Origin: Patescibacteria group bacterium | GTDB lineage: Bacteria; Patescibacteriota; Patescibacteriia; UBA9934; GWF2-40-263 | Reading direction: 5' to 3' | NCBI GenBank assembly: GCA_004297215.1 | Contig: SCUM01000001.1 | Coordinates: forward strand, 742,716-806,715 | DNA length: 64,000 nt | Shown: piece after piece, positions 4,004-42,300 of the stretch | How the letters are laid out: each line of letters starts with the position of its first letter | Numbering within the stretch: position 1 is the stretch's first letter | Position numbers and translations under genes: made by a program | Notes under the pieces: generated by a model | Databases searched by the model: none | What the model was told of the DNA's origin: nothing | The model's input: the letters and a program-made list of their open reading frames with translations, nothing else

Positions 4004-5116
4004 TTAGGATATCTCCGTTTCCCTGTCAATCTCGGGGGATGCAAGCGCCTTCCCCGTCTTCCCTGCGGCAATCTTGAAAATGTCCTTGTCGATTTTCTTC
4101 AGCTCGTTGCTCGACTCTGCATACGCGCGGGCGGTCGTCTCCAGATGCTTCCCGACCTTGCCGTGATACTCCTCGTACGCCTTGAGATGGCGATTGAGAT
4201 GTTCCGCCTGCACCTGGATCTCCTTCACCGAATCCTCGATCTGCAGCGCACGCAAGCCAAGCAGCACCGTCTGCAGGTAGGCGAAGAAGGAGGTGGGCGA
4301 CACGATCATCACCCCCTTCTCGAACGCGTACTCGATGAGATTGCGCGTGTTCACGTTCACGGCGCCGACGCTCGAGGTGATGAGATTGTGATAGACCCCT
4401 TCGGCCGGGACGAACATGAACGAAAAGTTCGTAGTTCCGCGCTCCGGACGGATGTATTTAGATGTCTCATCAATGCGCTTCTTGACGTCACTCTTGAATT
4501 CGCGCTCCAAGGCCTCTCGTCGGAGCGCATCTGTCTCAAGAGAAATTTTGTTGTAGTTCTCTAACGAAAATTTTGCGTCAATTGGTATCAACATTTCCTT
4601 CACGAAGATAACGGCATCTGGAATCAGTTTTGCATTCGTATCTTCGTCTACTCCCAGATCGTATTGCATTTGGTACTGGGTGGGTTGTAATACCTGTCCA
4701 AGAAGCGTTTCAAGCCAATATTCCCCAAGAATTCCTCGCTGCTTTGGATTCTTAAGAATATTTTCCAAGCTCTGTAGCTGTTTGGAGAAGTCCAGTACTT
4801 GCTTATTCGTTTCATCTAGCTTCGTGAGCTTTTCCGTTACATCCCGGACGATGCCAGAGGTATGAGCGGAATGCTTCTGGATCATCTGCATCGAATCATT
4901 CAGGCCTCGTGACATCCGGTCATCGATGCGATCCAGACGCCCCTGGAGTTCGGTTCTTCCCTTGGTTGATACCTCATCCATGTCCCGGCGGATGTCATTA
5001 AGCAGCTGGATCACTGACGAATCCAATGGGGCAGCTCCGACAGACCGCCTGGAATAGAAAAGAAAGGCGATAAGGCCGACAATCACGACAACCATGGCGA
5101 TTTCAATCGAATTCAT
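4004..5116 (-). CDS. rmuC: DNA recombination protein RmuC
   Basis: 370 aa. N-terminal TM helix plus coiled coil. C-terminal RmuC nuclease-like domain (FSFMFVPAEGVYHNLI...MIVSPTSFFAYLQTV). Confidence 0.85.
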   Translation of the reverse strand: MNSIEIAMVVVIVGLIAFLFYSRRSVGAAPLDSSVIQLLNDIRRDMDEVSTKGRTELQGRLDRIDDRMSRGLNDSMQMIQKHSAHTSGIVRDVTEKLTKLDETNKQVLDFSKQLQSLENILKNPKQRGILGEYWLETLLGQVLQPTQYQMQYDLGVDEDTNAKLIPDAVIFVKEMLIPIDAKFSLENYNKISLETDALRREALEREFKSDVKKRIDETSKYIRPERGTTNFSFMFVPAEGVYHNLITSSVGAVNVNTRNLIEYAFEKGVMIVSPTSFFAYLQTVLLGLRALQIEDSVKEIQVQAEHLNRHLKAYEEYHGKVGKHLETTARAYAESSNELKKIDKDIFKIAAGKTGKALASPEIDRETEIS

Positions 5117-5261: not shown

Positions 5262-5336
5262 GCCCTCATAGCTCAACGGATAGAGCAGATCCGTCCTAAG
5301 GATAAGATGGGGGTTCAATTCCCTCTGGGGGCACCA
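5262..5336 (+). tRNA. tRNA-Arg (anticodon CCU)
   Basis: Cloverleaf folds: acceptor GCCCTCA/TGGGGGC, T-loop GGTTCAATTCC, anticodon loop GTCCTAA, encoded 3' ACCA. Confidence 0.8.
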
Positions 5337-5437: not shown

Positions 5438-5513
5438 GGGCCGATAGCTCAGCTGGTAGAGCGCTGCATTCGCATTGCAGAGGTCTGGGGTTCGATTCCC
5501 CATCGGTCCACCA
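5438..5513 (+). tRNA. tRNA-Ala (anticodon CGC)
   Basis: 76 nt. Acceptor GGGCCGA/TCGGTCC with G3:U70, D-arm TAGCTCAGCTGGTAGAGC, anticodon loop TTCGCAT, T-loop GGTTCGATTCC, CCA encoded. Confidence 0.9.
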
Positions 5514-6077: not shown

Positions 6078-6983
6078 ATGCGTTACGCATCGGTCGCCGC
6101 GACAATTGTGGGGATGTTTATCTATGTGCCTTTTGCATTCGCGGAAATGTCCTCCGCGAATTTTGAGATCCGTTGGGATACGTTGAGTTCTGGTGGAGAC
6201 GATACGAGCTCGTCCGCATCGTATCTGCTTCGCGATACAGCGGGAGACGCGGGGATCGGAGATTCGACGAGCGCCAGTTACGAGCTTGCCGCCGGCTATC
6301 GCCAGGGCGTGAACGACCAGGTGATTACGTTCGAGGTGTTCGCCCAGGACAACGGCACGGAGCAGGCAGCCACGGCGCTCGTCTCGACGACCATCACCAC
6401 GAGCACGGCCGGATTGTCCATCGATGACTTCATCCTGCTCGTGCAGGACAAGGGCGCCTCGCAGGTTTCCGCCGTGGGCAGGATCGTTTCGATCGGCGCG
6501 GGAACCATCACGCTCGACGAACTCAAGGACGGCGGGACCGCGCCGACGATCGACGGGACGAACGACTTCGTCTACGCGCTCACGTCTTCGACCGCCGCAC
6601 TCGGTACGCTCGACGTCGCCGCGGTCAACACGTCGGTCGTCGCGTTCGACGTCACGGCCGAGGCGGATGCCGGATACACGGTGCAGATGATGGATGACGG
6701 CAACCTCCGCAACGGCGGCAACGACATCAACGACGTCGCGGACGGCACCGTGACCGCCGGCAGCGAGGAGTATGGCGGCCGTTCGTCCGATACGACGCTT
6801 GCGGGCTCCACGTTCGACACGGCTGACACGGCCGTAACGACGGGCTTCCAGGACGTTGCGGACCGCTCCGTCGCGTCGTTCTCTTCGCGCGATTTCGTGA
6901 CGCTCAAGGCATCGATGACCGGCGCGACCGAAAACCTCGCGTACGCGAACGTCACGAGCTTCGTGATTTCCGGGAACTACTGA
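6078..6983 (+). CDS. Secreted subunit-like protein (signal peptide, three SxNY-type repeats, C-terminal ...FVISGNY)
   Basis: 301 aa. Signal peptide MRYASVAATIVGMFIYVPFAFA. Paralog of 32767..33426 (shared DV(A/S)DG(T/A)VTAGSEEYG and terminal (I/V)(A/S)(T/S)GNY). Ser/Thr/Asp-rich. Confidence 0.75.
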   Translation: MRYASVAATIVGMFIYVPFAFAEMSSANFEIRWDTLSSGGDDTSSSASYLLRDTAGDAGIGDSTSASYELAAGYRQGVNDQVITFEVFAQDNGTEQAATALVSTTITTSTAGLSIDDFILLVQDKGASQVSAVGRIVSIGAGTITLDELKDGGTAPTIDGTNDFVYALTSSTAALGTLDVAAVNTSVVAFDVTAEADAGYTVQMMDDGNLRNGGNDINDVADGTVTAGSEEYGGRSSDTTLAGSTFDTADTAVTTGFQDVADRSVASFSSRDFVTLKASMTGATENLAYANVTSFVISGNY

Positions 6984-6984
6984 T

Positions 6985-7863
6985 ATGAAGCGTCTCGCCT
7001 CCGTCATCGCCATGCTCACGATGCTCACGCCGGTTGCCGCACGCGCTTTTTCCGTTTCTCCGGCGATCATCGACCTCTCCGCCACGCGCGGGACGGTCGC
7101 GTCGACGTCGATCACCATCACCAATGCCGACGCACGGGAGAAGACGTATTACCTGCAGGCGATCGCCTTCGAGCCGCGCGAGGACGCGGACGCGCCGCGT
7201 TTCCTCCCGCGCGAAGAGGGGACGGCGGGATTGTCGGAGTGGATTTCGATCGAGGACCGCGTGCGCGTGCCGGCGGGCGGGAAGCTCACGGTACCGGTAA
7301 AGGCGGCGGTGCCCATGGATGCGCTTCCCGGGACGCACTATGCCGCGATCACCGTGTCGGACGCGCCGTATGACGTGGTGGCTTCCCAAGGCGCCCCGAT
7401 CCAGGCGCGGGTGGCGGTCTTGCTGTTCCTGACGGTAGAAGGAGGGACGGCGAAGGCCGCGCTCCTGGATTTCCTGCCGGATCCCGCCGGAGCCATCCGG
7501 GAGAACACCTCGCACAGGTACGCCCTTCGCATCCAAAATCAGGGAGACGTGGTCGTGATCCCCGTCGGTACGGTAGAGACGAGGGACCTGTTCGGGCGAG
7601 TCGTCGCGTCGGCGCAGGTGAACGGGGAAGGGAAGCGCGTGGTCCCCGGATCGACGCGGACGTTCGAGGTGATCGTGCCGGAGAAGGGACTCGCCCTCGG
7701 CCCGGTGACGGCCACGCTCAAGCTGACCTACGCATCGGACCAGCCCGCCCTGTCTTCGTCCGACTCCTTCTGGGTATTCCCATGGCCGGTCGTCATCCTG
7801 TCGGCCTTCGTCGGCCTGATGGGTCTCATGATCCTGGTCGGCATCGTCCGACGACGCGCCTGA
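6985..7863 (+). CDS. Membrane-anchored PapD-like/DUF916-like beta-sandwich protein (candidate assembly chaperone)
   Basis: 292 aa. Signal peptide. N-terminus FSVSPAIIDLSATRGTVASTSITITNADAREKTYYLQAIAFEP resembles the pilus-chaperone N-domain motif. C-terminal FWVFPW followed by TM helix and RRRA tail. Paralog at 35280..36236. Confidence 0.75.
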   Translation: MKRLASVIAMLTMLTPVAARAFSVSPAIIDLSATRGTVASTSITITNADAREKTYYLQAIAFEPREDADAPRFLPREEGTAGLSEWISIEDRVRVPAGGKLTVPVKAAVPMDALPGTHYAAITVSDAPYDVVASQGAPIQARVAVLLFLTVEGGTAKAALLDFLPDPAGAIRENTSHRYALRIQNQGDVVVIPVGTVETRDLFGRVVASAQVNGEGKRVVPGSTRTFEVIVPEKGLALGPVTATLKLTYASDQPALSSSDSFWVFPWPVVILSAFVGLMGLMILVGIVRRRA

Positions 7864-7864
7864 T

Positions 7865-10800
7865 ATGCCCCATATAAGGAGGAACGTCCATCGTCTCATC
7901 GCCGCCGCGACCATCCTCGCGAGCGTCTTGCCGTTCCTCCCCGCGCGCGCGGCCACGGTCACCTCCGCGAGCGACGTCATGACCACCCTGGAGACGTCGG
8001 CCGCCGCGAACCACGTCATCGCCTTCGTCACCCCATCGGGCGTTTCGGAAGGGGACACGGTCACCATCGAGTTCGACGCGGATTTCGACACGTCGGGCCT
8101 TACCGAAGATGACGTGGACGTGGAGGACGACGGCGTCGACCTTACGACCGCCGCGGATTGCAGCGGCGCGGAACAGGCGTCGGTCATCCTTGCTGCCGAC
8201 ACGTTCACCATCACCATCTGTGCCGGAGACGGGGGCGCGATCGCCGCCACGAGCGAGGTGACGGTGGAAATCGGCACCAATGCCACCGCTTCGGGCACGG
8301 GCACCTCCCAAATCGACAACCCGTCCGCGGCGGGCACCTATTACGTGTCCGTGTCCGGCACGTTCGGCGACGCCGGCTCCATCGCCCTTCCCATCGGAGG
8401 GGATGACACGATCGGCGTGACGGCGACGGTCACCACCGGCGGCGCTGGAGGAGGTGGGCCGCCGGCCCCGCCCGCGGGCGACACCACGCCGCCCGTCATC
8501 AGCAACATCACCGTGAGTTCGATCACGGCCACCTCGGCAATCGTCACCTGGGACACGGATGAGGCCGCGGACAGTCGCGTGGATTTCGGGCCCACCGTCG
8601 CCTACGAGAACGGGAGCGTCACGAGCGGGACCCTCGTCACCAGCCACGCGCTTACCCTCACCGGGCTCACGGGAAGCACCGAATACCACTTCCGCGTGCG
8701 CTCGAAGGACGCGGCGCTGAACGAGCGGATCAGTTCCGACAACACCTTCATGACCACGGACGGCGTCGCGCCGCTCATCTCGGCGATCGTCGTGACGGAC
8801 ATCACGACGACCAGCGCGCGCGTGACCTGGACGACGGATGAGGCCGCCGACAGCGCGGTCGATTTCGGACCCACCGTCGCCTATGGGACGATCGTCACGG
8901 ACGGGAGCCTGGTCGTGAGCCATTCCGTGGTGCTGACCGGACTCACGGAGAACGCCCTCCATCACTTCCGCGTGCGCTCGAAGGACGCGGCGCTGAACGA
9001 AGCCGTGAGCGGCGACGGGACGTTTACGACGCTCGACGATCCCAACCCGGGCAACGTCACCGGACTGTCGGTGACGGCGGGGGACGCGCAAAACCAGCTT
9101 TCATGGACGAATCCCCCGGACGGCGACCTTTCGTCGATCCGCGTCATCGCGTGCACGAACGAAGCGCCGAGCAGCCCGACCGATCCGGATTGCACGGTCG
9201 TGTCCAGTTCGCTCGCTTCCTCTTTCACCCACACCGGCCTTTCCAACGGCACCACCTACTTCTACGGCGTCTTCGCCGTGGACGCCGTTGGGCAGTTCAG
9301 TTCTGGTACGCTCGGGCAGGGTACCCCGAGCGTGCCAGAAGAAGAGCTGCCGCCGGAGGAGCCTCCCCCGGAGCCTCCCCCGGAAGCGCCGCCGGAACCG
9401 CCCCCAGAGGCGGTTCCACCCCCAGCCCTCCCGTCCGGCCAGGCGGGAGGAGCGTGCGGGGACGGCATCTGTTCGGACCTGGAGTCCGGCGCATCTTGCG
9501 CCGTCGACTGCGGTCCGCTCCCGCCCGCGGCCGCGTGCGGGAACGCCGTGTGCGAAGCCGGCGAGGACAGCGCCTCGTGCGCACAGGACTGTCCTCCCGG
9601 CCTCGTGCCGGCCGATGTCCTGCGGCAAGACCTCACGTTCCTTGCGGGAGCCGCCGGGCTCGCGCTCCCCGTGTCCGACCGGGGATCGGTCGCGGTGCTT
9701 TCGCGCCGTGCGCTCGTCGCGCGGCTTTCCGCCATCCACCTTGATCGACCGGTGGATCGCGTCGAACTTGCCCTTGAGGGCGAGACCTACCTCATGGCCC
9801 CAACCTTCTCGGAAGAGGAGGGACAGGGGTTGCGCGCCGCCGCCGTGGGCGACGACGCGTACGAGACCACGATCACGACGCCGGAGACGTCGGGATCCCA
9901 TCCGTTAGCGGTGACCGTCCACTACGGGGACGGCACCGTGCAGGCCGTCGCCTTGCTCCTCGACGTAAAGGGCGACGGATATGCCTATGCGTCCGTCGAC
10001 GATGCCGAACAGCGCGTTTCAGGCGCCACCGCCACGCTTCACGAGGTCAACGGGGGAACGGCCGTATGGGACGGGTCACCCTACGGGCAATCCAATCCGT
10101 TGACGACGGGCGGCAACGGCGCGTTCGCCTGGTACGCGCCGAACGGGACGTACGCCGTGTCCGTTTCGGCCGCCGGGTATGCGCCCGCGCGGACCGCGAC
10201 GTTCTCGGTCACGGACCACATCATCAATCCTCGCGTGCGGCTCGCCCTCGAGGAGGAGCCGCCGCTGATCCCGCCCCCTTCGGCCCCCGTCGCGGCGATC
10301 CTGGACGCGGCCGCCGCCGTCAACGAGACGCTCGAGGCGGTACGCGACCTTCCCGCCGTGCAGACGGCCGCGGACATCTCGGTTCCCGCGCTTGCCGTGA
10401 CCGCCTCCCTCACGGGCGTCACGCTCGCGATCGGGTTCAATTTCGTTCCTTTGCTCCAATATCTCTTCACCGCGCCCGTCCTGCTCGTGGGACGGCGCAA
10501 GCGTCGCGCTTTCGGGATCGTCTACAATTCGATCTCGAAGCTGCCCGTGGACCTTGCCACCGTGCGATTGTTCCGCCTGCCGGATGAGCTTCCCGCCGAG
10601 GGGGTTCCGGAGACCGGGAGGCTGGTGCAATCCCGCGTGACGGACCGCGGCGGACGCTATTTCTTCCTTGCCAATCCCGGCCGCTACCGCCTGGCGGTGA
10701 CGAAGCAGGGATTCGATTTCCCGACGGGCTACCTCTCATCCTCGCGGGAAGACCATGACTTCCTCGACCTCTATCACGGCGAGCCCATCGTCGTCTCCGA

Positions 10801-11329
10801 GGCCGGGGCCGTCATCGCGGCCAACGTCCCGCTCGACCCGTCGCAGGCCGCCGCGTTCCACGCTCCGGCCGCCATCGTCCTCAAGGCGCGCCTGCGGACG
10901 ATCCAACACGTCGTTTCCATCTCCGGCATCATCGCCTCGGTCGCGTTCGCGGTGATCAGGCCGGGCGCCCTGACGGTCGGGATGGTGCTCGTGCAGGCGC
11001 TCGTCTACCTTGCCGTGCGCCGCCTCGCGCGCGCGGCCAAGCCCAAGAGCTGGGGGATCGTGTACGACCAGGGGACGGACAAGCCGCTTGGCCGCGTCAT
11101 CGCGCGCGTGTTCGAGCCGCGGTACAATAAGCTCCTTGAGACGGCCGTCACCGACGGCAACGGCCGCTACAACTTCGTGCTCGGGCCCAACGAGTATTAC
11201 GTGGTGTTCGAGCATGAAGGCTACGACAACGTCGAGATACGCCCGGTGGATTTCACCGGACGCAAAGAGGCATCGGACTGGGGCGTCCAGGTCCGCCTGC
11301 CGCCAAAGCTCCTTCCCGCATCCGCGTGA
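7865..11329 (+). CDS. Large multidomain surface protein (subunit-like N-domain, 3x FN3, Cys-rich modules, TM helices alternating with carboxypeptidase-regulatory-like domains)
   Basis: 1154 aa. N-terminal 190 aa homologous to the 34101 protein (ATxTSAxDxM, NHxIxFxTPxGV, ADCS, IGTNAT, SGTFGDxGxIAL). FN3-like repeats with TEYHFRVRSKDAALNE. Pro/Glu-rich linker. Two CG(D/N)GxC...C..DC modules. TM + GRRKRR + CarbopepD_reg-like (TDRGGRYFF..PGRYRL) + TM + second CarbopepD_reg-like (TDGNGRYNF). Confidence 0.8.
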   Translation: MPHIRRNVHRLIAAATILASVLPFLPARAATVTSASDVMTTLETSAAANHVIAFVTPSGVSEGDTVTIEFDADFDTSGLTEDDVDVEDDGVDLTTAADCSGAEQASVILAADTFTITICAGDGGAIAATSEVTVEIGTNATASGTGTSQIDNPSAAGTYYVSVSGTFGDAGSIALPIGGDDTIGVTATVTTGGAGGGGPPAPPAGDTTPPVISNITVSSITATSAIVTWDTDEAADSRVDFGPTVAYENGSVTSGTLVTSHALTLTGLTGSTEYHFRVRSKDAALNERISSDNTFMTTDGVAPLISAIVVTDITTTSARVTWTTDEAADSAVDFGPTVAYGTIVTDGSLVVSHSVVLTGLTENALHHFRVRSKDAALNEAVSGDGTFTTLDDPNPGNVTGLSVTAGDAQNQLSWTNPPDGDLSSIRVIACTNEAPSSPTDPDCTVVSSSLASSFTHTGLSNGTTYFYGVFAVDAVGQFSSGTLGQGTPSVPEEELPPEEPPPEPPPEAPPEPPPEAVPPPALPSGQAGGACGDGICSDLESGASCAVDCGPLPPAAACGNAVCEAGEDSASCAQDCPPGLVPADVLRQDLTFLAGAAGLALPVSDRGSVAVLSRRALVARLSAIHLDRPVDRVELALEGETYLMAPTFSEEEGQGLRAAAVGDDAYETTITTPETSGSHPLAVTVHYGDGTVQAVALLLDVKGDGYAYASVDDAEQRVSGATATLHEVNGGTAVWDGSPYGQSNPLTTGGNGAFAWYAPNGTYAVSVSAAGYAPARTATFSVTDHIINPRVRLALEEEPPLIPPPSAPVAAILDAAAAVNETLEAVRDLPAVQTAADISVPALAVTASLTGVTLAIGFNFVPLLQYLFTAPVLLVGRRKRRAFGIVYNSISKLPVDLATVRLFRLPDELPAEGVPETGRLVQSRVTDRGGRYFFLANPGRYRLAVTKQGFDFPTGYLSSSREDHDFLDLYHGEPIVVSEAGAVIAANVPLDPSQAAAFHAPAAIVLKARLRTIQHVVSISGIIASVAFAVIRPGALTVGMVLVQALVYLAVRRLARAAKPKSWGIVYDQGTDKPLGRVIARVFEPRYNKLLETAVTDGNGRYNFVLGPNEYYVVFEHEGYDNVEIRPVDFTGRKEASDWGVQVRLPPKLLPASA

Positions 11330-27575: not shown

Positions 27576-29969
27576 GTGGGGACTATGACGCGCTCCTCCG
27601 ACCTGTACCTGCGCCTCGCGCGCGGGTTCCTGTATGTCCTGCTCGGGCTGTTGCCGCTGTTCTATCTCCCCGTGAGCCTGGAGCCCTTGGAGGTGAACAA
27701 GCAGACACTGCTCGTGCTGCTCACTTCCGCCTCGGCGCTCGCGTGGATCGGATCCATGGTGAGCGCGCGCGCCGTGTCCGTGCGCCGCGGGTGGGTGAAC
27801 CTGCTGCCCGTGCCGCTCGTCGCCTTCACGCTCCTTTCCGCGGCGTTTTCCTCGGGCCCGTACCTTTCCTGGGTGGGAACCGCGGGACAGGAATACATGA
27901 GCGCGCTCTCGGTGCTTGCGTACGCGCTGCTGTGGTTCTTGTGCGCCAACCTGCTCGCGCTTCCCGCGCATAGGCGCACGGCCTTTGCCGTGCTGCTTGG
28001 CTCCGGCGCGTTCGCCGGGATCCTGGGCATCCTCGGGATCCTGGGCGTGCGCGCGCTCCCCATCCCCGGCGGGATGCTGGGCAACACCGTGGGGAGCCCC
28101 AACGCCTTCGGGATGTACCTCGCCTCGGTCGCCGCGCTCGCCTGCGCCCTGTTCCTCGTGCACCGGGAGTCCGACGCGGTCATGTACCGGGGCCGCAAGG
28201 GCGCGTTCCAGCACGCCGCCATCTTCCTTGCCTGCGCCGTCGCATTTCTCGCGCTCATGCTGGTGGATTATGCGCCGGTGTGGGCCGCGCTTGAAGCGGG
28301 CGTGCTCGCGCTGTTCGCCCTTTCCATGGCGCGCGCCAAGGACATCGGCCCGGGGAACCGGTTCACGCTCCCGTTCCTCCTGCTGGTATCGAGCGTCCCG
28401 TTCCTGCTCGTGTTCGACCGGCCGCTGCCCGCGAAGATCCCCACCGAGGTCACGCCCGACGCCTCCTCCTCATGGGCGGTGGCGCGCGAGACGCTTTCCC
28501 ATGACGGCGCCTTGCTGGGTTCCGGCCCCGGCACCTTCGTGTACCAGTACGGCCGTTACCGTCCGGAGGAGGTGAACAAGACCGCCTTCTGGAACACGCG
28601 GTTCGACCGCGCGAGCAGCTTCGCGTTCACCGTGCTGCCCACCTTCGGCGTGCTCGGGACGCTCGGCTGGGCCGTCGCGCTCTTGGGCTCGCTCGCCTGC
28701 GGCATCGGCGCGTTCCTGCGCGCGCGCGAACGGGAACGCCTGGTCGCGCCCTTCGTGCTCGTCCCGCCGCTTGCCGCGCTCCTCATCGCCCTGTGCCTGT
28801 ACGGCGGCACCCTCACGCTGCTTACGCTGTGCTTCGCGCTCTCGGGGCTCGTCTGCGGCGCCGCGATGCGCGAGGGCCGCGCCGACCTCGACCGCGCCCC
28901 GCGCCTCTCGCTCGCGCTCTCGGCCCTGTTGGTGCTCGCGGCCACGGCCATCGCCACGGGGCTGTTCGGGAGCCTCATCCGGTACGCCTCGGAGGCCGCG
29001 TTCGCGCATGCCGTGCGCCTTGACCGCGCCGACGCCCCCATGAAGGAGATCGTGGCAAGCCTCGACCGCGCCGCGAGCCTCAACCGCTGGAACGACGTGT
29101 TCTACCGCAACCTCGCGCAGGCGTTCCTGCTCATGACCGGCGAGGAGATCAAGGCGCTTTCCGGCGCCGCGACCCCCATGACCGACGAGCAGCGCGCCTA
29201 CGTGCAGGCGCTCACGGGCGCGGCCGTGAACGCGGGGGTGCGCGCCACCGAGCTCGGGCCCGACAACGCGCTCAACTGGCTCGCGCGCGGGGCGCTCTAC
29301 CGCGAGTTCATCCCGCTCATCGGGAACGCCGGCGAGCACGCGGTGGAAGCCTACCAGCGGGCGATCGCGCTCGAACCCCTCGACCCGGAGAACCGCACCG
29401 AGCTCGGGAAGGCGTTCCTCACGCTCGCCGAGAACAACCGCGCGCTCACGGCCGCCGAGGACAAGGCCGTGGCCGACGAGGCGCTCGCCAAGGTGGCGGG
29501 GTACCTGAAGCAGGCCGAGGAGCAGTTTGACAAGGCGATCGCTCTCAAGGCCGATTACGCCCCGGCGCACTACCAGCTCGGCCTCATCTACGAACGCCAG
29601 GGGAAGATCGGCGAGGCCGTGGGAAAGATGGAATCCGTGTCGCAGTACAACCCGCTCGACGTGGGCGTGTTCTTCCAGCTCGGGATGCTCTACCTGCGCC
29701 GCGGCAGCGAGGGCGACCAGGACCGCGCGGAAAAGGCGTTCCTTTCGGCGATCGCGCTTTCCCCGAGCTATAGCAACGCGCGCTGGTTCCTGGCGAGCAT
29801 CTACGAGCAGAAGCGCGACCTGCCCAAGGCCATCGAGCAGGTGGGGAAGGTGCTCGAATACAACCCGGACAACCAGCTCGTGAAAGCGAAGCTCGACCGC
29901 CTCAAGGCCGGCAAGGTAAGTTCCACCACTCCGGTCCCGCTCACCGACCCCGCGCCCGCGACGCCATGA
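27576..29969 (+). CDS. Polytopic membrane protein with Wzy_C/O-antigen-ligase-like core and C-terminal TPR repeats
   Basis: 797 aa. About 10-12 predicted TM helices over the first 440 aa, including a GSGPGTFVYQY..loop motif reminiscent of the O-antigen ligase family. C-terminal 350 aa are TPR-like (AIALEPLDPEN.., AIALKADYAPAHYQLGLIYERQGK.., AIALSPSYSNARWFLASIYEQ..). Confidence 0.6.
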   Translation: MGTMTRSSDLYLRLARGFLYVLLGLLPLFYLPVSLEPLEVNKQTLLVLLTSASALAWIGSMVSARAVSVRRGWVNLLPVPLVAFTLLSAAFSSGPYLSWVGTAGQEYMSALSVLAYALLWFLCANLLALPAHRRTAFAVLLGSGAFAGILGILGILGVRALPIPGGMLGNTVGSPNAFGMYLASVAALACALFLVHRESDAVMYRGRKGAFQHAAIFLACAVAFLALMLVDYAPVWAALEAGVLALFALSMARAKDIGPGNRFTLPFLLLVSSVPFLLVFDRPLPAKIPTEVTPDASSSWAVARETLSHDGALLGSGPGTFVYQYGRYRPEEVNKTAFWNTRFDRASSFAFTVLPTFGVLGTLGWAVALLGSLACGIGAFLRARERERLVAPFVLVPPLAALLIALCLYGGTLTLLTLCFALSGLVCGAAMREGRADLDRAPRLSLALSALLVLAATAIATGLFGSLIRYASEAAFAHAVRLDRADAPMKEIVASLDRAASLNRWNDVFYRNLAQAFLLMTGEEIKALSGAATPMTDEQRAYVQALTGAAVNAGVRATELGPDNALNWLARGALYREFIPLIGNAGEHAVEAYQRAIALEPLDPENRTELGKAFLTLAENNRALTAAEDKAVADEALAKVAGYLKQAEEQFDKAIALKADYAPAHYQLGLIYERQGKIGEAVGKMESVSQYNPLDVGVFFQLGMLYLRRGSEGDQDRAEKAFLSAIALSPSYSNARWFLASIYEQKRDLPKAIEQVGKVLEYNPDNQLVKAKLDRLKAGKVSSTTPVPLTDPAPATP

Positions 29970-32727: not shown

Positions 32728-32756
32728 TTGACTGCCCATTCCAAAAAACGTAAAAT
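32728..32756 (+). promoter_or_regulatory. Consensus sigma70 promoter of surface locus 2 (near-leaderless)
   Basis: TTGACT, 17-nt spacer, TAAAAT. ATG at 32767 only about 4-6 nt after the predicted TSS. Shares AAAATGCTTTGAC with the promoter at 6030. Confidence 0.7.
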
Positions 32757-32766
32757 AGCTAAGAAT

Positions 32767-33426
32767 ATGGTCCGAGCCTTCATTTTTGCCGTAGGCGCTT
32801 GTGTTGGAACCCTGTTGCCCGGGATGGTTCTGGCCCAGTCCACCTCCACCAATTACATCCTGTGGGACACCGCGATCAATGCGGGAGGCGGAAGGACTAC
32901 GTCCACGAATTACATCAATTTCAACACGGTGGTGGACGTGGGGAGCGACCGTCTTTCCAGCACCAACTATCGCGCCTACCAGGGGTTCGAAGCGATCACC
33001 GAGGACCCGCGCATCACCATGAGCCTTACCCCCACAACCATCACCCTCTCGCCCAATCCGCTCACCACCGCGTCGGTGAGCACGGGCACCACCACGGCCA
33101 CCGTGAGCACGAACGCGGACTTCGGCTACACGCTCACGGCCACGGAGAACGACGCGTTCAAAAATCAAAGCGCCGATGAGCTCGCGGACGTCTCCGATGG
33201 CGCCGTCACTGCCGGGAGCGAGGAGTACGGCATCGCGGTGAGCGGTTCCGACGCCGCGTTCGGCGACGACCGCAGCGTTTCCGCGACCCCGCGCACGATC
33301 GCGAGCAAAAGCACCTGGGGAGCCGACCGCGCCACCGTCGTCACCGTGAAGGCCGCGATCGCGAGCGTCACGGACTCGGGGGAGTACTCGGGCACGCTCA
33401 CGTTCATCGCCACGGGGAATTATTGA
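32767..33426 (+). CDS. Secreted subunit-like protein (paralog of 6078), C-terminal ...TFIATGNY
   Basis: Start MVRAFIFAVGACVGTLLPGMVLAQS (signal peptide). The ORF-track start at 32728 lies upstream of the promoter. Three S-T-N-Y repeats, DVSDGAVTAGSEEYG, terminal TLTFIATGNY. Confidence 0.75.
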   Translation: MVRAFIFAVGACVGTLLPGMVLAQSTSTNYILWDTAINAGGGRTTSTNYINFNTVVDVGSDRLSSTNYRAYQGFEAITEDPRITMSLTPTTITLSPNPLTTASVSTGTTTATVSTNADFGYTLTATENDAFKNQSADELADVSDGAVTAGSEEYGIAVSGSDAAFGDDRSVSATPRTIASKSTWGADRATVVTVKAAIASVTDSGEYSGTLTFIATGNY

Positions 33427-33428
33427 AT

Positions 33429-33517
33429 AGTGCGTAGTGCGTAGTTGGTAGTACGTAGGAAAGAAAATCTACGCACTACGAACTACGTACTACGAACTAC
33501 GTACTACGCACTACGCA
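33429..33517. repeat. Hairpin built from ACTACGY heptamer arrays (left flank of the four-helix-bundle gene)
   Basis: AGTGCGTAGTGCGTAGTTGGTAGTACGTAGG..loop..CTACGCACTACGAACTACGTACTACGAACTACGTACTACGCACTACGCA. Confidence 0.8.
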
Positions 33518-33532
33518 AACATATGAACAACG

Positions 33533-33888
33533 AAAAAACGGGTTCGTACCAAGACTTGATCGTGTGGCAGAAGGCCATGGATCTTGTGGTCGGTGTTTAT
33601 GAGATTACAAAAGATTTTCCTACAGATGAGCGGTATGGGATCGTGAGTCAGATGAGACGTTCCGCCGTGTCTATCCCGTCGAACATTGCGGAGGGATATA
33701 GGCGAAAAAGCGAGGTGGATTTTCAAAGATTCCTCCGGATCGCCTATGGCTCAGCGTCTGAACTCGAAACACAGCTCCTCATTGCGCAACGGTTACGATA
33801 CGGGCCAGCAAGCTTTGCCCGAACGGATGCTCTCCTGGAAGAAATTCTGAAAATGTTAAACAAGATGACGGAAGGGAAGAGTTCGTAG
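33533..33888 (+). CDS. Four-helix-bundle protein (23S rRNA intervening-sequence protein family)
   Basis: MNNEKTGSYQDLIVWQKAMDLVVGVYEITKDFPTDERYGIVSQMRRSAVSIPSNIAEGYRRKS..FLRIAYGSASELETQLLIAQRL matches the TIGR02436-type family. The annotated upstream start lies inside the hairpin repeat. Confidence 0.8.
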
Positions 33889-34100: not shown

Positions 34101-35258
34101 ATGAACAAATTCCATTCATTCATCGCGAAAGTGACCATGCTCTCGCTGGTGGTCGCGCTGGTGGCGATCGTCTCCCCGGCGCAGGCGGCCACGATCACCT
34201 CCGCCAAGGACACGATGTCGCGCGTGCAGATCTCGACCCTCTCCAACCACGAGATCCTGTTCACGACCCCGACCGGCGTCGCGAGCGGCGCCACGATCAT
34301 CGTCACGTTCAACACCGACTTCTCGGTCGCGGCCGCGCTCGACTTCACGGATCTCGACCTCTCATCGGACTCGACACCGGATGCCGACTGTAGCGCGGAC
34401 GAAACGGAGGCGACCCTCGCGGCCGCCCCGTCGGGCGCCACGGTGGGCGCCGTGCGCACGTCCGGCACCGTCATCACCTTCACCAACGGCACGACCGTGA
34501 TCGCGGCCGGGTCGGAAGTGTGCATCCAGATCGGCACGAACGCCACGAACCAGACGACCGGCGTCCGACAGGTCACCAACGCCACGACGGACAGCTCGGC
34601 GAGCGCCAAGACCGTCGCTTTGAGCGGCACCTTCGGCGACTCCGGCACCATCGCGTTGGGCATCGTGGACGACGACACGGTAGCCATCTCGGCCACGGTC
34701 ACGTCCGCGCTCACCTTCGACCTCGATACGGTCACCACGGACACATGCAGCACCACCGAGACTGCGGCCGCCTACGCGGTCGCGCTCGGCACTATCACCA
34801 CCACCGACACCCGCGTGTCCGGCGGGACCGACTCGGTGGAATCCATCTGCGTAGACCTCAACACCAACGCCTCCGGGGGCGCCGTGATCACGGTCGTCTC
34901 GGCCAACGGGTCGAGCGGGCTCGTGAGCACCTCGGTGCCGGGCGACACCATCCCGAGCGCCGGAGCCACCATGGCCGACGGCACGGCCAACTACGGCATC
35001 TGCGTGGTGTCGGAAACGTCTTCCGCCGGCACGTTCGACGACGTGGCGCCGTTTGACAACGCCTCGTGCGCGGCCAACACCGAGACCAACGTGGTCGGCG
35101 GCCTCACCACCTCGGCGCAGACCATCCTCGACACCAACACCGACCCGATCGCCACCGGCCGCGCGCAGATCGCCGTGAACGCCGCCATCAGCGGAATCAC
35201 CCCGGCGCACAGCGACTACGCGGACACCCTCACGTTCATCGCGACGGGGACGTTCTAA
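34101..35258 (+). CDS. Secreted subunit-like protein 2 (homologous to the N-domain of the 7865 protein), C-terminal ...LTFIATGTF
   Basis: 385 aa. Signal peptide. ATITSAKDTM..NHEILFTTPTGV..ADCSADE..IGTNATNQ..SGTFGDSGTIALGI. Thr/Ser-rich. The terminal strand resembles those of 6078 and 32767. Confidence 0.75.
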   Translation: MNKFHSFIAKVTMLSLVVALVAIVSPAQAATITSAKDTMSRVQISTLSNHEILFTTPTGVASGATIIVTFNTDFSVAAALDFTDLDLSSDSTPDADCSADETEATLAAAPSGATVGAVRTSGTVITFTNGTTVIAAGSEVCIQIGTNATNQTTGVRQVTNATTDSSASAKTVALSGTFGDSGTIALGIVDDDTVAISATVTSALTFDLDTVTTDTCSTTETAAAYAVALGTITTTDTRVSGGTDSVESICVDLNTNASGGAVITVVSANGSSGLVSTSVPGDTIPSAGATMADGTANYGICVVSETSSAGTFDDVAPFDNASCAANTETNVVGGLTTSAQTILDTNTDPIATGRAQIAVNAAISGITPAHSDYADTLTFIATGTF

Positions 35259-36341: not shown

Positions 36342-39300
36342 GTGAGTTCCCACGTCCGCCCCGTGTCACGAGCGTCTCGTGGCATGAGGCGGGTGGATTC
36401 CACCCGAACTTTGCACGCCCCCATGCTTGTCGTGCAGCCAGACAAATCCCTCATCCGAAGAGTAAGCGCGAGCGAGCCGTTCGCGCTCGTTGTGGTTTTC
36501 CTCATGATGATTTCCGGGTTCAGCGTGTGGATGCTGCTGTCGCGCGCGCCCGGGGCGGTCGCGACGCTCGACACGCCGATGCTCATCACCTATCAGGGGA
36601 AGCTCACCAACGCGAGCCGCATCACGGTGCCGGACTCGGCGCTCAACATGAAGTTCGCGATCTACACCTCGAGCTCCGGCGCCTCCGGCTGCGTGTGGAG
36701 CGCGGGCGACGACCCGGGCGACGGCGCGGACACTACCTTCTCGCAATCAAGCGACTGTCCGAGCCATGTCCCGTCGACCGCGATTTCCGTGACGCCCAGC
36801 GAAGGGGTGGTCACGGTGATCCTCGGCGCCTCCCCGCAAAACGCCATCCCCGATGCGCTGTTCGACGACAACTCCGCCCTGTACCTCGGCGTCACCGTGG
36901 GGGCTGACAGCGAAATGACTCCGAGGATCCGCCTCACCGCCACGCCCTACGCCTTCCAGGCCGGCGACGCGGACCTGCTCGACGGCCTCGATTCCACGGC
37001 GTTCGCCACCACGAGCACCGCGTTCGTGAACAACGGCAATTCCTTCGCCGCCGCCGGGGTGATCGGCACCAACGACGCGAACTCGCTCTCGTTTGAGACG
37101 AACAACGTTACCTATCTCACCATCGCCTCCGGCGGCGGCTTCACGCTTCCCGTGGACACCGACTGGACGCTCACGGGCGGCACGAACGGGTTGAGCCTCG
37201 ACGGCACCACCTTCTCCGTGGACGCCGCCAACAACCGCATCGGCATCGGCACCGCGGCCCCGAGCCAGACCCTCACGGTGGTCGGCACCGGCGACGTGTC
37301 CGGCCACGTGGCCATCGGCGACGACGCCGCGATCAACGACGCGTCGCTCCTCTATGGCGCATCGACCATCACGAACGTCCTTACCGTCTCCGAGGAGATG
37401 ACGGACGGCGCCTCGGACTACGTGGACGGCATCACCAACCACATCCTGTACAACCCGTCCACCGACGCCTCAACCACGTGGGTCGACGGCATGGACACGG
37501 TCGTGGAGACGGCCGCGGCAAACGCGCAGGACATCGACGTGATCGATGCCGGATATTTCGGGACCACCCATAACGGCACGGGCGACATCGTGGGCTGGCT
37601 CAACGGCGTCTCGGGGGTCGTCAGCACGACGGCGACGAGCGGGAGTTCTATTTCGAACAACGCCGGGTATTTCGCGGTCACCGCGATCGACCCCCGCGCC
37701 ACCGGTACCGAGGACAACTACGGCTTGTGGTCGGCCGTGAGCCGCACCGGCGCCACGGGCGGCACCATCAACACCTACGGCGTGTACGTGCAAAGCAACG
37801 GCATGGACGCTGCCGGCGCCGGTACCTCCACCCTCTACGGCCTCTATATAGAGAGCATGACAGGGGCCGACACCAACTACGCCATCTACTCCGCCGGCGG
37901 CCAGAGCTACCACGCGGGGAACTTCGGGATCGGCGACGCCTCTCCCGCCTCCCTCCTCACCGTGGGCTCGGGCGACCTGTTCCAGGTGACCTCCGCGGGG
38001 AGGATCATCACGACCGTGACCCCCACGGCCGACTCGGGGACCACCAACAACGCGGCGTTCGTGATGCTCACCACCCCGGCGGACACCACCGGCACGAACG
38101 TGCACAACGCCCTGCGCGTGGACGGGAACGTGGGCAACGCCACCGGAGGCACCAACACCGTCAATCTCCTCGAGTTCGACGCTCTGACCGGCGACGCCCA
38201 AGTGACCCTGCGCGGCATCGACATCGGCGCGCTCACCGGCACCGCCGCCACGGAGGACGCCATCCTGGTCGGAAGCGGTTGGGACTGCACGTTCAAGGTG
38301 GGCTCCACCTGCGTGATCGATGGCTCCGGCACGCTCGGTTCCAGCGGCAACGCCTTCGTGAACGGGGGCAACTCCTTCGGCGCCAGCGCCATCCTCGGGA
38401 CGAACGACGCCAACTCCCTTTCGTTTGAGACCAACAACACCACCTACCTCACCATCGCCTCCGGCGGAGGATTCACCCTCCCCGTGGACACCGACTGGAC
38501 GCTCACGGGCGGGGAGAACGGGTTCTCCATCGACGGCACCACCTTCTCGGTGGATGGCTCGGCCAACCGCGTGGGCATCGGCGACGCCACCCCCGACGCG
38601 CTGCTCGACGTGGGCGGGGACGCGTTCATCGACAACGACCTCGTGGTGGGTGCCGCGACCTCGACCACCGAGACGCTCGCGAACGCCGGGTTCAGCTTGA
38701 GCAACGACGACCTATTCGTCTCTGACTCCATCGGCGCCGAGGGCAACGTCTACACCGACGGCTCCTTCATCGCGGGTGCCACCCTCACGCTCGCCGACTC
38801 CGGCATCACCGAGTCGGGTGCCTTCACCTTCACCTCGCAGCTCGCCGCGGGCGGCACTACTTCTTCCGCCTTCAACCTTGTCTCGAGCAACGACCTGGGC
38901 GCATCCGACGAGGTGCTCCAGATCGGCGACTCGGCCGCCACCTTCATGACCGTGCTCGGGAACGGCAGCGTGGGGATCGGGACGGTGAGTCCGTCAGTGA
39001 TTTTAGATATCGCGAAAGTGGGTTCGGGAAGTACCGCGGCCCAAGTGACCATTTCCGGGTATGCGAATGACGCTTCCAGCGGGGCATACATGAACTGGCA
39101 AAAATCACGCGGAACGTCCGTCGGTTCTTTGGTCACGACCGATAGCGGAGATTATCTCGGGGTGATGGGATGGGCGGGCGTTACTTCTTCCAACACGAGC
39201 AGTTATGGCGCGAGGATCCTCGTGCAGCAAGATGCCGCGGCATCAGCGACGCAAGTACCCGGCGCCTTCATCATCAGGACGAGCGATGCCAGCGCCGAGT

Positions 39301-42300
39301 CTGAAAGATTGCGCATCACGAGTTCCGGCAACGTCGGCATCGGCGATACCACCCCCGCCTCGCTGTTCACCGTGGGCGACGGAGATGATTTCCAGGTATC
39401 CTCGACCGGTAACCTCACCTCTCCGGCCGACACCACATGGACGATTGGTGGCGGCGTGAACGGCCTCAACTTCGATTCGGACACCCTTTCGATCGACGCT
39501 ACGAACAATTTCGTGGGAATCGGCACGAGCACCCCGGACTATCTCCTCCAGGCCGAGGCCAGCTCCGCGTCCGTTCAAGCCGCCGTGGTCACGAACACGA
39601 ACACGGCCGGCGCAGGGGTGGTCATGGCGCAGGCGGGAAACGTGACGGCGCGCTATGCGGCGTACGGGACGACGGCGGCGATTAACAACTTCGCGTCCGG
39701 CACGGCGGCCTTCTTCGGAAGCGGCGCCGTCACCTCCGTCCAGATGGTCACGCCGGACGTGGCCGCCCCGTTGGCGTTCGGATACAACGATTTCGTCTCC
39801 ACGAGCCGCGAATTCCTCCGCCTGACGGACGGGACGGCCGGCGCCGTGTTCAACGAGGACAGCCTCGACCGGGATTTCCGCGCCGAGACCGACGGGAACG
39901 TCAACGGCATCTTCCTCGACGCTTCCGCCGAGACCATCGACCTGGTGGGCGGCTCGGGCTCCACGGGCTGCTCCATCAGCTCGGCGGGCGCCCTGGTGTG
40001 CACCGCAGGGGTAGGAGGATGGACCGACGGGGGGACCGACGTCACCCTCACCACCTCCACCGACAACGTGGGCATCGGCGGTGCGTCGCTCGGCAAGCTC
40101 TCCGTGGACGGGGATACCGACGAGATCCAGCTCCTGGTGCAGGGAAACTCCAGCCAGACGGCCAACTACATGACGGTGGAGACGAGCGCCGGCACCGACC
40201 TGTTCCAGATTGACACTTCCGGGAACGTCATCCTCACCAACGACCTTGGCGTGGGCGCCGCCGCCTCCTCCGAGACGCTCGCGAACACGGGTTTCTCGCC
40301 GAATGGCGACGACCTGTTCGTGGCGGACTCGATCGGCGCGGAAGGCAACGTCTACACCGACGGCTCCTTCATCGCCGGCGCCACCCTCACGCTCGCGGAC
40401 TCCGGCATCACCGAATCCGGCGCCTTCATTTTCACCTCCCAGCTCGCTTCCGGCGGCACCACCTCCTCCGCCTTCAACCTCGTCTCGAGCAATGACCTGG
40501 GTGCCGCCGACGAGCTCCTGCAGATCGGGGACTCGGCCGGGACGTTCATGACGTTCCTTGGGAACGGCAACGTCGGGATCGGGACCGTAAACCCCTCGGC
40601 CCCGCTCACGGTGGTCGGGGGAGCGGACGTCAATCTCGCCGCGGACGACAACTTCGTCATCGACGGGAGCACCAACCAGCGCACCATCACGCTCGGAGCC
40701 ATGCGCTTCTTGCACACGCCGGCCATCCAGGGGACGCGCGCCATCAACCTGGTGGTGGACGCCAACAACCAGTCCGACACCTCCGGCATCGTGGTGGATT
40801 ACGCCGCCACCAACTTCGACAGCGACCAGAACGGCACGGCGCTCAAGCTCTCGGTGGATTCCACGAGCGCGACCGGCGGGGAAGTGCGGGCGATCGACGT
40901 CACGAAGACGGCCGGCGGCACCCTCGACGTGTACGCGGTGCAAGCCGGGGTGGGCGTGACCCCCCTGCGCCAGGTCTCGGGCACGTTCGGGAACGTGGAC
41001 ACGGCGCTCATCGAGGCCGGCGGATTCACGGCCGTCACGTCGAGCTTCAACTCCACCGGCACCGACGTGCAGATGTTCGTGGCCAACGGCGACCGCGTGT
41101 ACGTGGGCGCGGACACCACCTTCGGCGCCGTCTCCTTCGTGCTCGCCACCGTCGCCTCCGGCGCCGGAGTGAAGCCAACCTTCGAGTTTTCCACGGGCGC
41201 CGGATGGACGAGCTTCGGTCCCAACGACGGGACCAACGGGATGCGCACCAACGGGAGCATCAGTTGGGACGCCGCCGACCTCGCGACCTGGGCCACCCAG
41301 TCCGTGAACGCCACCACCAAGTACTGGATCCGCATCACGCGCACGCAGGCCGCGCTTACCACGCCGCCCACCGAGGACATCGTGCAATACGCGGCCGCGA
41401 CCAATTACACCTGGGACGTGAACGGCGACCTCGCGATCCGCGACCTCGCGGTCAACGGCGGCGACCTCACCACGAGCACTTCCACCTTCAACCTGGCCGC
41501 GTCGGTCACGACGCTCGCGATGGCCGGCGGCTCCGGCTCCACGGGCTGCACGATTGACTCCTCGGGGAACCTGGCGTGTTCCGGCACGGTGTCAGGGAGC
41601 GGAGCCGTCGGGTTCGTGAACGGGGGCAACTCCTTCGGCGCCAGCGCCATCCTCGGGACGAACGACGCGAACTCGCTCTCGTTTGAGACCAATAACACCA
41701 CCTACCTCACCATCGCCTCCGGCGGCGGGTTCACGCTTCCCGTGGACACCGACTGGACCCTCACGGGCGGCACGAACGGGTTGAGCTTCGACGGCACCAC
41801 CTTCTCCGTGGACGCCACCAACAACCGCATCGGCATCGGCACGGCGGCGCCGACGACGGAGCTTGATATTGTCGGTTCGGGGACCGGCTACAACTTCAAC
41901 GCGATCCGCAGCACGAACGGCAACATCGGCTATTTCTCCCAGAACGACACGGCCGGCACCGCCGCGACATCGCGCATGTGGTTGATTGCTGACGGGGTTT
42001 CGGGCAACAGCGTGCAAGGGAATCTCTGGGCGCTCTCCTCCTCCTATACGGATGCCTTCTGGGGAAGCTACGCGGCGGGCAAGGTCTTGCTTGCGGCTGC
42101 TGGTGAGGCGAGTCGGAAGGACCTGTTGATCGCGGCGGTCGGTTCCGGGACTGGCGGCAAGATCGCATTCCATGTCGGTGGATTGAACGAGGCGCCGTTA
42201 GCCGCCAACGAACGGGCGCAAATCGGCGCGACTGAGTTCGTCGTCAACGACAGCTCCAATAATTACGACTTCCGCGTGGAGGGCGACACCAACGCCAACC

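Follow-up and report, generated by a model that had tools for sequence, protein, structure and literature searches.

A probable Pam-type pilus or surface-fiber system in a Patescibacterium related to Candidatus Uhrbacteria

Here, we investigated three genes for secreted proteins with a common C-terminal motif in a 64,000-nucleotide stretch of DNA (the window; contig SCUM01000001.1 of GenBank assembly GCA_004297215.1, positions 742,716 to 806,715 of the forward strand) from a Patescibacteria group bacterium, and compared them with described surface systems. The closest of these is the Pam pilus of Ca. Mycosynbacter amalyticus, which belongs to the Saccharimonadia within the candidate phyla radiation (CPR). 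Its pilins are PamA, PamB, and PamE, and cryo-electron microscopy (cryo-EM) of its filaments revealed two of them, PamA and PamB (bioRxiv 10.64898/2026.03.03.709456, hereafter the Pam preprint). In the Pam filament, the open C-terminal domain (CTD) of a subunit is filled by its neighbor's linker, and a conservation map of PamA/B shows that the donated linker and the binding site of the CTD are both conserved. PamB has three sets of paired cysteines. PamT is a single truncated immunoglobulin (Ig) domain without a linker and is the proposed tip; PamC and PamD are PapD-like chaperones whose C-terminus forms a membrane helix; and PamR, the proposed tether, contains two Fn3 domains and a membrane helix, with an additional strand at the N-terminus. 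A tail-fiber-like protein is common near pam operons, and CPR bacteria are treated in the same preprint as lacking an outer membrane. Two other systems bear on the comparison. In the WxL/Csc clusters of Firmicutes, a WxLIP strand is predicted by AlphaFold 2 (AF2) to complete the β-sandwich of its WxL partner (PMC10599100), and PDB entry 9i25 contains a WxL protein together with WxLIP. TLP-1, a filament from pond water solved by cryo-EM, is built by donor-strand exchange, and its donor strand is disordered in AF2 models (PMC11494351).

We consider it likely that the three proteins, named here with all other genes by their start positions in the window (6078, 32767, and 34101), are subunits of a Pam-type pilus or surface fiber built by donor-strand exchange with a membrane-anchored chaperone and no usher. 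This reading rests on matches to NCBIfam Pam models, a common CTD, protein architecture, conservation, synteny, and chaperone-like proteins that resemble WxLIP, and the mechanism is drawn by analogy with the PamA/PamB cryo-EM structures and with chaperone-usher pilins. The initial annotation had read the conserved C-terminal strand as a sign of subunits that either polymerize by strand exchange or dock into a chaperone or a membrane pore. The type of system held up, given the matches to PamT and Pam_pilin_C, the Pam preprint, synteny in 50/50 loci, and fold matches to donor-strand pilins; the C-terminal strand is probably not the exchanged element. Nor do all three appear to polymerize: 34101 is the sole one with both donor and acceptor, and 6078 and 32767 have an acceptor domain without a linker, as in a tip-type subunit.

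The window has a G+C content of 64.7%, and its proteins are on record as EPO34_03845 and EPO34_03900, hypothetical proteins of "Patescibacteria group bacterium." Among 345 homologs of 6078, the named ones are mostly from Candidatus Uhrbacteria (Parcubacteria group), and the 539 homologs of 34101 are from Parcubacteria-type CPR, with the named ones in Parcubacteria or Paceibacteria. Judged by these relatives, the host is a high-GC Patescibacterium related to Ca. Uhrbacteria.

The common C-terminal motif proposed in the initial annotation is present at the ends of all three proteins (Table 1). Its strict form occurs in only two open reading frames (ORFs) of at least 80 amino acids in the window, and 6078 is a relaxed match. 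The family alignment of 6078 (91 sequences) has the C-terminal consensus Y-x-[QH]-x-L-[ST]-[FL]-I-x-S-G-N-[FY]-COOH, and that of 34101 (105 sequences) ends in D-Y-T-D-T-L-T-F-I-A-T-[GA]-T-[FY]-COOH. The similarity reaches well into the proteins. BLASTP aligned the last 110 residues of 6078 and 32767 at 34% identity (E 2e-11), with a separate match between their N-terminal repeats (E 1e-4); 32767 and 34101 are 48% identical over their final 29 residues (E 3e-4). A profile-profile comparison of the 6078 and 34101 families with hhalign gave 92.6% probability and an E value of 4.4e-7 over ~130 columns up to the C-terminus. On these sequence comparisons, the three proteins have a whole homologous β-sandwich CTD of ~130 residues in common, not one strand alone. 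Pfam has no match for any of the three, nor for the 105 members of the pilin family. All three also begin with signal-peptide-like segments, in line with the initial annotation, with predicted cleavage (slash) at AFA/EM in 6078, VLA/QS in 32767, and AQA/AT in 34101.

Two of the proteins, 6078 (T1) and 32767 (T2), resemble PamT. We used the Pam models of NCBIfam release 20, namely NF058579 (PamT equivalog, cut-off 240 bits) and NF058581 (Pam_pilin_C, cut-off 55 bits). T2 matches the former over model positions 4–168 of 241 (E 7e-14, 51.8 bits) and the latter at E 2.1e-7 (31.1 bits); the E values for T1 are listed in Table 1. The scores of 6078 and 32767 fall below the PamT cut-off (56.2 and 51.8 bits), as they do for Pam_pilin_C (21 and 31.1 bits), to which 34101 has no match. 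Because the E values are significant, we nevertheless regard 6078 and 32767 as homologs of PamT. Furthermore, both have the acceptor-only layout of PamT, a CTD without a linker, and neither matches our hidden Markov model (HMM) of the pilin N-domain plus linker. T2 is recognized by our own HMMs of the N-terminal repeats (T_Nrep, E 1e-7) and the CTD (T_CTD, E 3e-22). Its longest ORF begins at 32728 (232 amino acids), and the ATG at 32767 yields a normal signal peptide. T1 is composed of a signal peptide, three S-x-N-Y/F repeats, an inserted β-barrel, and the CTD; its AF2 model has a mean predicted local distance difference test (pLDDT) score of 81.6, with the CTD modeled confidently. In the abundance-ordered proteome of M. 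amalyticus, PamT ranks 768th, with PamA 2nd and PamB 9th (bioRxiv 10.64898/2026.03.03.709456), and this low rank fits a minor tip subunit.

Fold comparisons of T1 point in the direction of pilins. No Foldseek match of the 6078 model against the PDB reached an E value of 0.001, and the list of matches is rich in chaperone-usher pilins (CfaB, FimA, PapA, CsuA/B, and the pilin domain of PapG), with TLP-1b as the best compact fold match. The 6078 family profile, searched against PDB sequences, has as its best match the CS17 pilin, on the last strands (E 0.074).

The third protein, 34101, has the layout of a Pam pilin in its AF2 model, with two β domains (residues 30–186 and 204–383; mean pLDDT 94.2) joined by a conserved and essentially unpaired linker. 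In that linker, strand is assigned only at residue 189, between strands 180–186 and 204–211, despite pLDDT values of 95–97. The best-conserved blocks of the family include the linker (191–210; 3.5–3.6 bits) and the last 15 residues (371–385; 3.8 bits). Six cysteines (97, 141, 216, 250, 301, and 323) are enough for three pairs. A Foldseek search with the 34101 model, run on a PDB copy that does not include PamA and PamB, found tandem Ig adhesins in general.

A second copy of the pilin N-domain and linker stands in 7865. Residues 9–183 of this large membrane protein align with residues 5–194 of 34101 at 39% identity (E 1e-24), and the corresponding HMM (Pil_NTDlink) matches at E 1.9e-38; Pfam finds three Fn3 domains (E 2.9e-20) and CarboxypepD_reg domains. 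By sequence, 7865 appears to have retained the donor linker and to have replaced the CTD acceptor with a membrane anchor, which gives it the makeup of a PamR-type tether in a variant architecture. An HMM inventory of the window counts exactly two chaperone-like proteins, two with an N-domain plus linker, two T-type proteins, and one pilin CTD.

The initial annotation named 6985 and 35280 as partners of the subunits, and this stands: both encode cognate chaperone-like proteins and adjoin subunit genes, the 6985 type in 50/50 loci. The two proteins are 32% identical (E 4e-34), and each has a hydrophobic C-terminal helix followed by basic residues. Their layout and gene position are those of Pam chaperones, and we liken them to PamC/D on architecture. 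An exhaustive HMMER search with 6985 returned 4,134 cluster representatives at E ≤ 0.001. Searched against the PDB, the profile of the chaperone-like family (108 sequences) matched EfmWxLIP1 of Enterococcus faecium (9i25_C and 9i1y_A, E 1.9e-7) and did not match PapD or FimC. The Pfam model WxLIP_PGBD (DUF916) is matched by 42/108 family members; the two proteins from the window themselves reach only E 0.058 and 0.17. We then aligned the family profile by hhalign with Firmicutes WxLIP sequences (DUF916/DUF3324) taken from eight WxL clusters on plasmids, and obtained 98.8% probability and an E value of 7.5e-17 over 230 columns that span both domains. At the level of profiles, the chaperone-like family is homologous to Firmicutes WxLIP. 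This homology of Pam-type chaperones is new and unreported; the Pam preprint mentions neither WxL nor DUF916, and when the literature was searched for these terms together with CPR terms, neither WxL nor DUF916 appeared in the papers ranked highest. As a separate observation on gene order, the Firmicutes plasmid clusters L054 to L061 have a small WxL gene directly upstream of the WxLIP gene, mirroring the CPR order of a T-type gene followed by a chaperone-like gene.

The operon around T1 is strongly conserved. In the window, a single base lies between each stop and the next start codon in the run 6078-6985-7865. A synteny scan of one genome per species, made with a single very specific peptide pattern that picks up Uhrbacteria orthologs and does not extend to the Saccharimonadia, found 53 loci with a 6078 ortholog, all in Uhrbacteria or Patescibacteria metagenome-assembled genomes (MAGs). 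The T1 ortholog is followed by a chaperone-like gene in 50/50 loci with room for it, the anchor is present in 43/45, a homolog of the giant proteins 11489 and 20107 comes after the anchor gene in 36/36 with enough sequence, and rmuC lies upstream in 42/42. A 34101-type CTD was found within 10 kb of the T1 ortholog in none of the 53 loci. Homologs of 34101 in other Parcubacteria (L062, L064, and L066) occur in the gene order T-like, pilin, chaperone-like; the T-like proteins of those three loci end in ...TLTFIGTGNF, ...TITFIATSTF, and ...DIIYTITATF, and one has N-terminal S-T-N-F repeats. Many public MAG records with the Uhrbacteria-type operon (those of L002, L005, L006, L010, L013, L015, and others) bear the title "uncultured Gammaproteobacteria bacterium." In gene content they agree with Uhrbacteria, and the titles look like bulk mislabeling.

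Table 1. Positions of the proteins and segments described in the text, in window coordinates
Feature	Position	Strand	Composition or basis
T1, PamT-like acceptor-only (tip-type) subunit, 301 aa	6078..6983	+	NF058579 E 3.2e-15, 56.2 bits; NF058581 E 2.7e-4
T1 N-terminal module, residues 24-78	6147..6311	+	three S-x-N/S-Y/F repeats, period 19-20 aa
T1 inserted small β-barrel, residues 83-167 (~85)	6324..6578	+	AF2; no counterpart in 32767
T1 CTD, residues 172-301	6591..6980	+	homologous (by sequence) to CTDs of 32767 and 34101
T1 conserved C-terminal strand YANVTSFVISGNY	6942..6980	+	AF2 strand 293-299; family consensus
Chaperone-like protein 1, 292 aa, PamC/D analog	6985..7863	+	signal peptide, two Ig-like domains, C-terminal transmembrane helix
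Membrane anchor, 1154 aa, PamR analog	7865..11329	+	pilin N-domain and linker strand, Gly/Pro spacer, three Fn3, CarboxypepD_reg, transmembrane segments
Anchor pilin-type N-domain and linker (...GSIALPIGGDDTIGVTATV), then poly-Gly	7946..8440	+	similarity to 34101, HMM
Giant fiber-like protein, 2814 aa	11489-19933	+	conserved T1 operon
Giant fiber-like protein, 2482 aa	20107-27555	+	conserved T1 operon
TPR-repeat protein	27576..29969	+	TPR in Pfam and NCBIfam; ends conserved operon in several relatives
T2, PamT-like single-domain subunit, 219 aa from ATG at 32767	32767..33426	+	signal peptide, three STNY repeats, CTD
T2 conserved C-terminal strand YSGTLTFIATGNY	33385..33423	+	sequence, end of ORF
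Two-domain pilin, 385 aa	34101..35258	+	signal peptide, N-terminal β-sandwich, linker, CTD, six cysteines
Pilin linker GIVDDDTVAISATVTSA, putative donor strand, residues 187-203	34659..34709	+	almost no DSSP strand, family conservation
Pilin conserved C-terminal strand DYADTLTFIATGTF	35214..35255	+	AF2 strand 377-383, pLDDT 98; top-conserved block, 3.8 bits
Chaperone-like protein 2, 318 aa	35280..36236	+	signal peptide, C-terminal transmembrane helix
Giant fiber-like protein, 4299 aa	36342..49241	+	downstream of chaperone 2

The C-terminal strand of classical chaperone-usher pilins flanks the groove; the donor strand pairs with it, and the chaperone holds on to it. As a check suggested with the initial annotation, we examined AF2 monomer models of 6078 and 34101. 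Both place the C-terminal strand confidently within the CTD of its own chain (residues 293–299 in 6078 and 377–383 in 34101, pLDDT 92–98), and the linker of 34101 is left without a partner strand. Because of this placement, the joint conservation of strand and linker, the same pattern in PamA/B, and the analogy with classical pilins, the conserved C-terminal strand most likely lines the strand-accepting groove rather than being the swapped strand itself. It is plausible, again by analogy with those pilins, that it also docks on a strand of the chaperone.

Assembly by the Pam-type route would then proceed as follows. After Sec export, a strand of the chaperone-like protein would fill the open groove of the subunit CTD, and the linker of the next subunit would displace it. 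The C-terminal strand (Y-x-x-T-L-T-F-I-A-T-G-N/T-Y/F) would be the last CTD strand, a groove wall pairing with the incoming strand, and such a role would account for its conservation along with that of the linker. The distal end would be formed by 6078 or 32767, as acceptor only; 34101 would be the polymerizing subunit; and 7865 would donate the last linker, tying the fiber to the membrane. Since no polymerizing pilin occurs at the 6078 locus in any relative examined, that locus may give rise to no more than a short stalk of anchor plus tip, which is possibly connected with the giant fiber proteins of the same operon.

Several points weigh against this assignment. No filament has been seen in the Uhrbacteria lineage, and the system is known here from genes and monomer models. 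The NCBIfam Pam matches all score well short of the curated cut-offs; no Pam model matches 34101, 6985, or 35280, and the sole tie of 34101 to the Pam families is its hhalign alignment with the 6078 family (E 4.4e-7). Across 45 paired loci, covariation of the T1 CTD (C-terminal strand included) with the linker of the anchor is enriched only 1.5- to 3-fold, a figure confounded by column entropy and phylogeny. For the C-terminal tail against the linker, 6 pairs fall in the top 1% with 2 expected; the linker columns are more variable, phylogeny is uncontrolled, and we do not count this as evidence.

The N-terminus of the T-type proteins offers a different candidate for a donor. The initial annotation had described S-x-N-Y triplets right after the signal peptide of 6078 and 32767. 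Such triplets are present in both, except that the first copy in 6078 ends in F rather than Y: the repeats lie at residues 26, 46, and 65 of 6078 (SANF, SASY, and SASY) and at residues 40, 59, and 78 of the 232-amino-acid ORF of 32767 (STNY each time). In a six-frame scan of the 64 kb, three such motifs within 60 residues occur only in these two proteins, and the module is not in 34101. At least three S-x-[NSTA]-[YF] motifs within the first 95 residues are found in 79/91 members of the 6078 family. The module starts two residues past the predicted signal-peptide cleavage site, and it is the part of 6078 that aligns to the PamT model (positions 7–114). In 6078, it is conserved like the folded parts (2.8–3.4 bits per column), with an AF2 pLDDT below 50 in the monomer. 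The Pam preprint describes neither this module nor the conserved C-terminal motif.

In a further reading, which we hold to be rather improbable, the T-type proteins polymerize or nucleate assembly by inserting their S-x-N-Y strands into another subunit's groove, as the N-terminal extensions of chaperone-usher pilins, TasA/TapA, or TLP-1 do. The module would sit at the mature N-terminus, it is conserved like a folded domain yet AF2-disordered, and hydrophobic residues alternate along its repeats; AF2 likewise leaves the TLP-1 donor strand disordered, and among compact folds, 6078 matches TLP-1b best. However, PamT is of low abundance in M. amalyticus, a single donor strand would suffice and three are left unexplained, and the repeats are unlike the donor sequence of the linker. 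Our preferred guess is that the module is a segment that forms strands only upon binding a partner at the distal tip. It could possibly be a tip element that becomes ordered on contact with a partner or host, a set of donor strands like those of TLP-1, TasA, or TapA, or a connector to the giant fiber proteins of the same operon.

A surface complex of the WxL/Csc kind, in which the membrane-anchored WxLIP-like protein keeps small and large subunit proteins on the envelope one to one, its strand permanently completing their CTD, and no filament forms, is in our judgment unlikely. It would suit the true WxLIP homology of the chaperone-like family (98.8%, E 7.5e-17), the same gene order of a small subunit gene, a WxLIP-like gene, and a large surface protein, and the finding that a donor-plus-acceptor subunit is present at the 6078-type locus in none of 53 relatives. 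However, relatives of the subunits form real filaments in M. amalyticus, as seen by cryo-EM (bioRxiv 10.64898/2026.03.03.709456). Furthermore, the linker of 34101 is unpaired yet conserved, and 7865 keeps the linker and loses the CTD, neither of which is easily accounted for unless subunits donate strands to one another.

A further point against such a complex is that homology of the CTD to the WxL domain is not supported. WxL proteins end in ...Y-x-x-T-L-T-W-x-L-x-x-x-P, which resembles the subunit ending Y-x-x-T-L-T-F-I-A-T-G. Full-length profile-profile comparisons with a WxL alignment (22 sequences) gave probabilities of 1.5–2%, which are not significant. When only the domains were aligned by greedy hhalign, the alignment was collinear and paired the C-terminal motifs, but had an E value of 0.23. 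A WxL HMM run with filters off against the CTDs, in a database of 121 sequences, gave marginal E values of 0.016–0.4. The Pfam WxL family (PF13731, with two W-x-L motifs) does not match the subunits, in which the tryptophan is replaced by F or Y. We rejected the identity of the CTD with the WxL domain as not demonstrated, and keep it as a lead.

Exchange of the C-terminal strand itself is, we think, very improbable. In the type V pili of Bacteroidia, a subunit's groove takes up C-terminal strands of its neighbor, and such a mechanism would suit a strand that is amphipathic, strongly conserved, and placed at the extreme C-terminus with an aromatic last residue. AF2 places this strand confidently in the CTD of the same chain (pLDDT 92–98), no lipoprotein cysteine follows the signal peptide, the donor in the solved Pam filaments is the linker (bioRxiv 10.64898/2026.03.03.709456), and the anchor 7865 has a linker and no C-terminal strand. 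We set this reading aside, together with the next. The suggestion that the C-terminal aromatic is an outer-membrane β-barrel insertion signal or a pore-docking signal can practically be dismissed: a terminal F/Y after alternating hydrophobic residues does resemble the β-signal of outer-membrane proteins, but the models are soluble β-sandwiches and not barrels, CPR bacteria have no outer membrane, and the operon genes that we scanned include neither an usher nor a BAM component.

The neighboring genes fill in the surroundings of the two loci. The three giant proteins (11489, 20107, and 36342) have their first ~170–220 and last ~600 residues in common, and they may be the tail-fiber-like proteins noted near pam operons. 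Inside 36342-49241 (~45040-47200) are at least 13 tandem repeats of ~51 amino acids, with K-C-G-N-A-A-C-S-S-G-N and ...DG(Y/L)PV(I/V)SYYD..., and they have no Pfam match. A TPR gene follows the giant gene by tblastn in six relatives (L035, L039, L043, L045, L047, and L050). Past the third giant gene, at 49243-53437, are three further secreted or membrane proteins: the first has C-terminal dockerin-like aspartate-rich repeats, the second (857 amino acids) an Fn3-like segment, and the third a CarboxypepD_reg domain with transmembrane segments. In L064 and L066, similar C-termini (...DFSILA(F/Y)YWTG) are also encoded downstream of the chaperone-like gene.

Between 32767 and 34101 lies a gene for a 23S rRNA-intervening-sequence protein (33445-33888; PF05635, E 1.4e-39). 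Its third-position G+C is 0.53, with 0.8–0.9 in its neighbors, and this low value suggests a foreign insertion. Upstream of the 6078 operon, genes for tRNA-Arg(CCT) (5262-5336) and tRNA-Ala(CGC) (5438-5513) lie between it and the divergent rmuC (4004-5116, minus strand). The window also contains a lysine aminoacylase for elongation factor P (EF-P) of the EpmA/GenX type at 55010-56059 (TIGR00462, 297.6 bits, above the cut-off). To our knowledge, such an enzyme is unexpected in a reduced CPR genome.

For chaperone-usher pili (Pap, Fim, CFA/I, and Csu), neither an usher nor a PapD-family chaperone was matched by Pfam or NCBIfam among the operon genes scanned; the chaperone-like protein in the window is membrane-anchored, the donor is an internal linker and not an N-terminal extension, and the host has a single membrane. 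Unlike in type V pili, the subunits have no cysteine at the cleavage site, and AF2 puts their C-terminal strand in its own domain. TLP-1a/b (PDB 9ikj and 9ikk; PMC11494351) and TasA differ in that the closest predicted-structure match of TLP-1 is a Flavobacteriales protein and its donor is the N-terminal strand of protomer n+4, and sequence similarity to the window subunits was not detectable.

The likeness to the WxL/Csc clusters of Firmicutes (PMC10599100; PDB 9i25 and 9i1y) includes a chaperone-like partner with a signal peptide, two Ig domains, and a transmembrane segment, the gene order, a partner predicted to be completed by a WxLIP strand, and the resemblance of the subunit Y-x-x-T-L-T-F-I-A to the distal WxL motif Y-x-x-T-L-T-W-x-L. 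However, the partner domains in the window have no significant WxL similarity, other residues stand in place of both tryptophans, we noted no LPXTG protein, and WxL proteins are described as peptidoglycan-bound rather than filamentous. It is a tentative idea that Pam pili and WxL/Csc clusters are two branches of one ancient single-membrane system, in which a two-domain chaperone anchored in the membrane (WxLIP or PamC/D) lends one of its strands to an unfinished β-sandwich subunit and the C-terminal strand is the counterpart of the distal WxL motif; our data support the chaperone half of it and not the subunit half. If it were true, WxL proteins might assemble by strand complementation or exchange rather than merely adhere to peptidoglycan, and the S-x-N-Y module would be an undescribed tip element of the superfamily. 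In any case, the WxLIP homology connects the Pam-type system with the WxL/Csc clusters found in enterococci, listeriae, and lactobacilli and gives both fields a hypothesis.

The closest likeness is to Pam pili, as the same set of parts is present in the window, partly twice: a pilin with a linker, an acceptor-only subunit, chaperones with a membrane helix, an Fn3 tether, cysteines in a number that fits pairs, and a giant fiber-like protein, all in a CPR host. The differences are those of a distant relative. The lineage of the window belongs to the Parcubacteria group (Uhrbacteria), and the homologs listed in the Pam preprint are mainly from Saccharimonadia and Microgenomatia. The tether 7865 has a complete pilin N-domain and linker where PamR has only an extra N-terminal strand, 6078 has an inserted β-barrel and its locus no major pilin, and among the window genes that we examined, none for ATP synthase was noted. 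We view the loci as a distant variant, in another CPR lineage, of the system described in 2026 from a single cultivated Saccharimonadia parasite; the same logic recurs here in the Parcubacteria group, with the N-domain-linker tether, the rod-less operon, and the inserted barrel as its variant features. Because of the hundreds of homologs and an operon conserved in about 50 species, the Pam-type system probably has a much wider distribution across CPR bacteria than was apparent from sequence searches with PamA/B. The S-x-N-Y module, whose conservation extends from Uhrbacteria to the PamT model, may have a part in host contact or in the nucleation of assembly. Furthermore, these natural variants make the assembly model testable, as they include a tether with an N-domain and linker but no acceptor and a tip-tether operon without a rod subunit.

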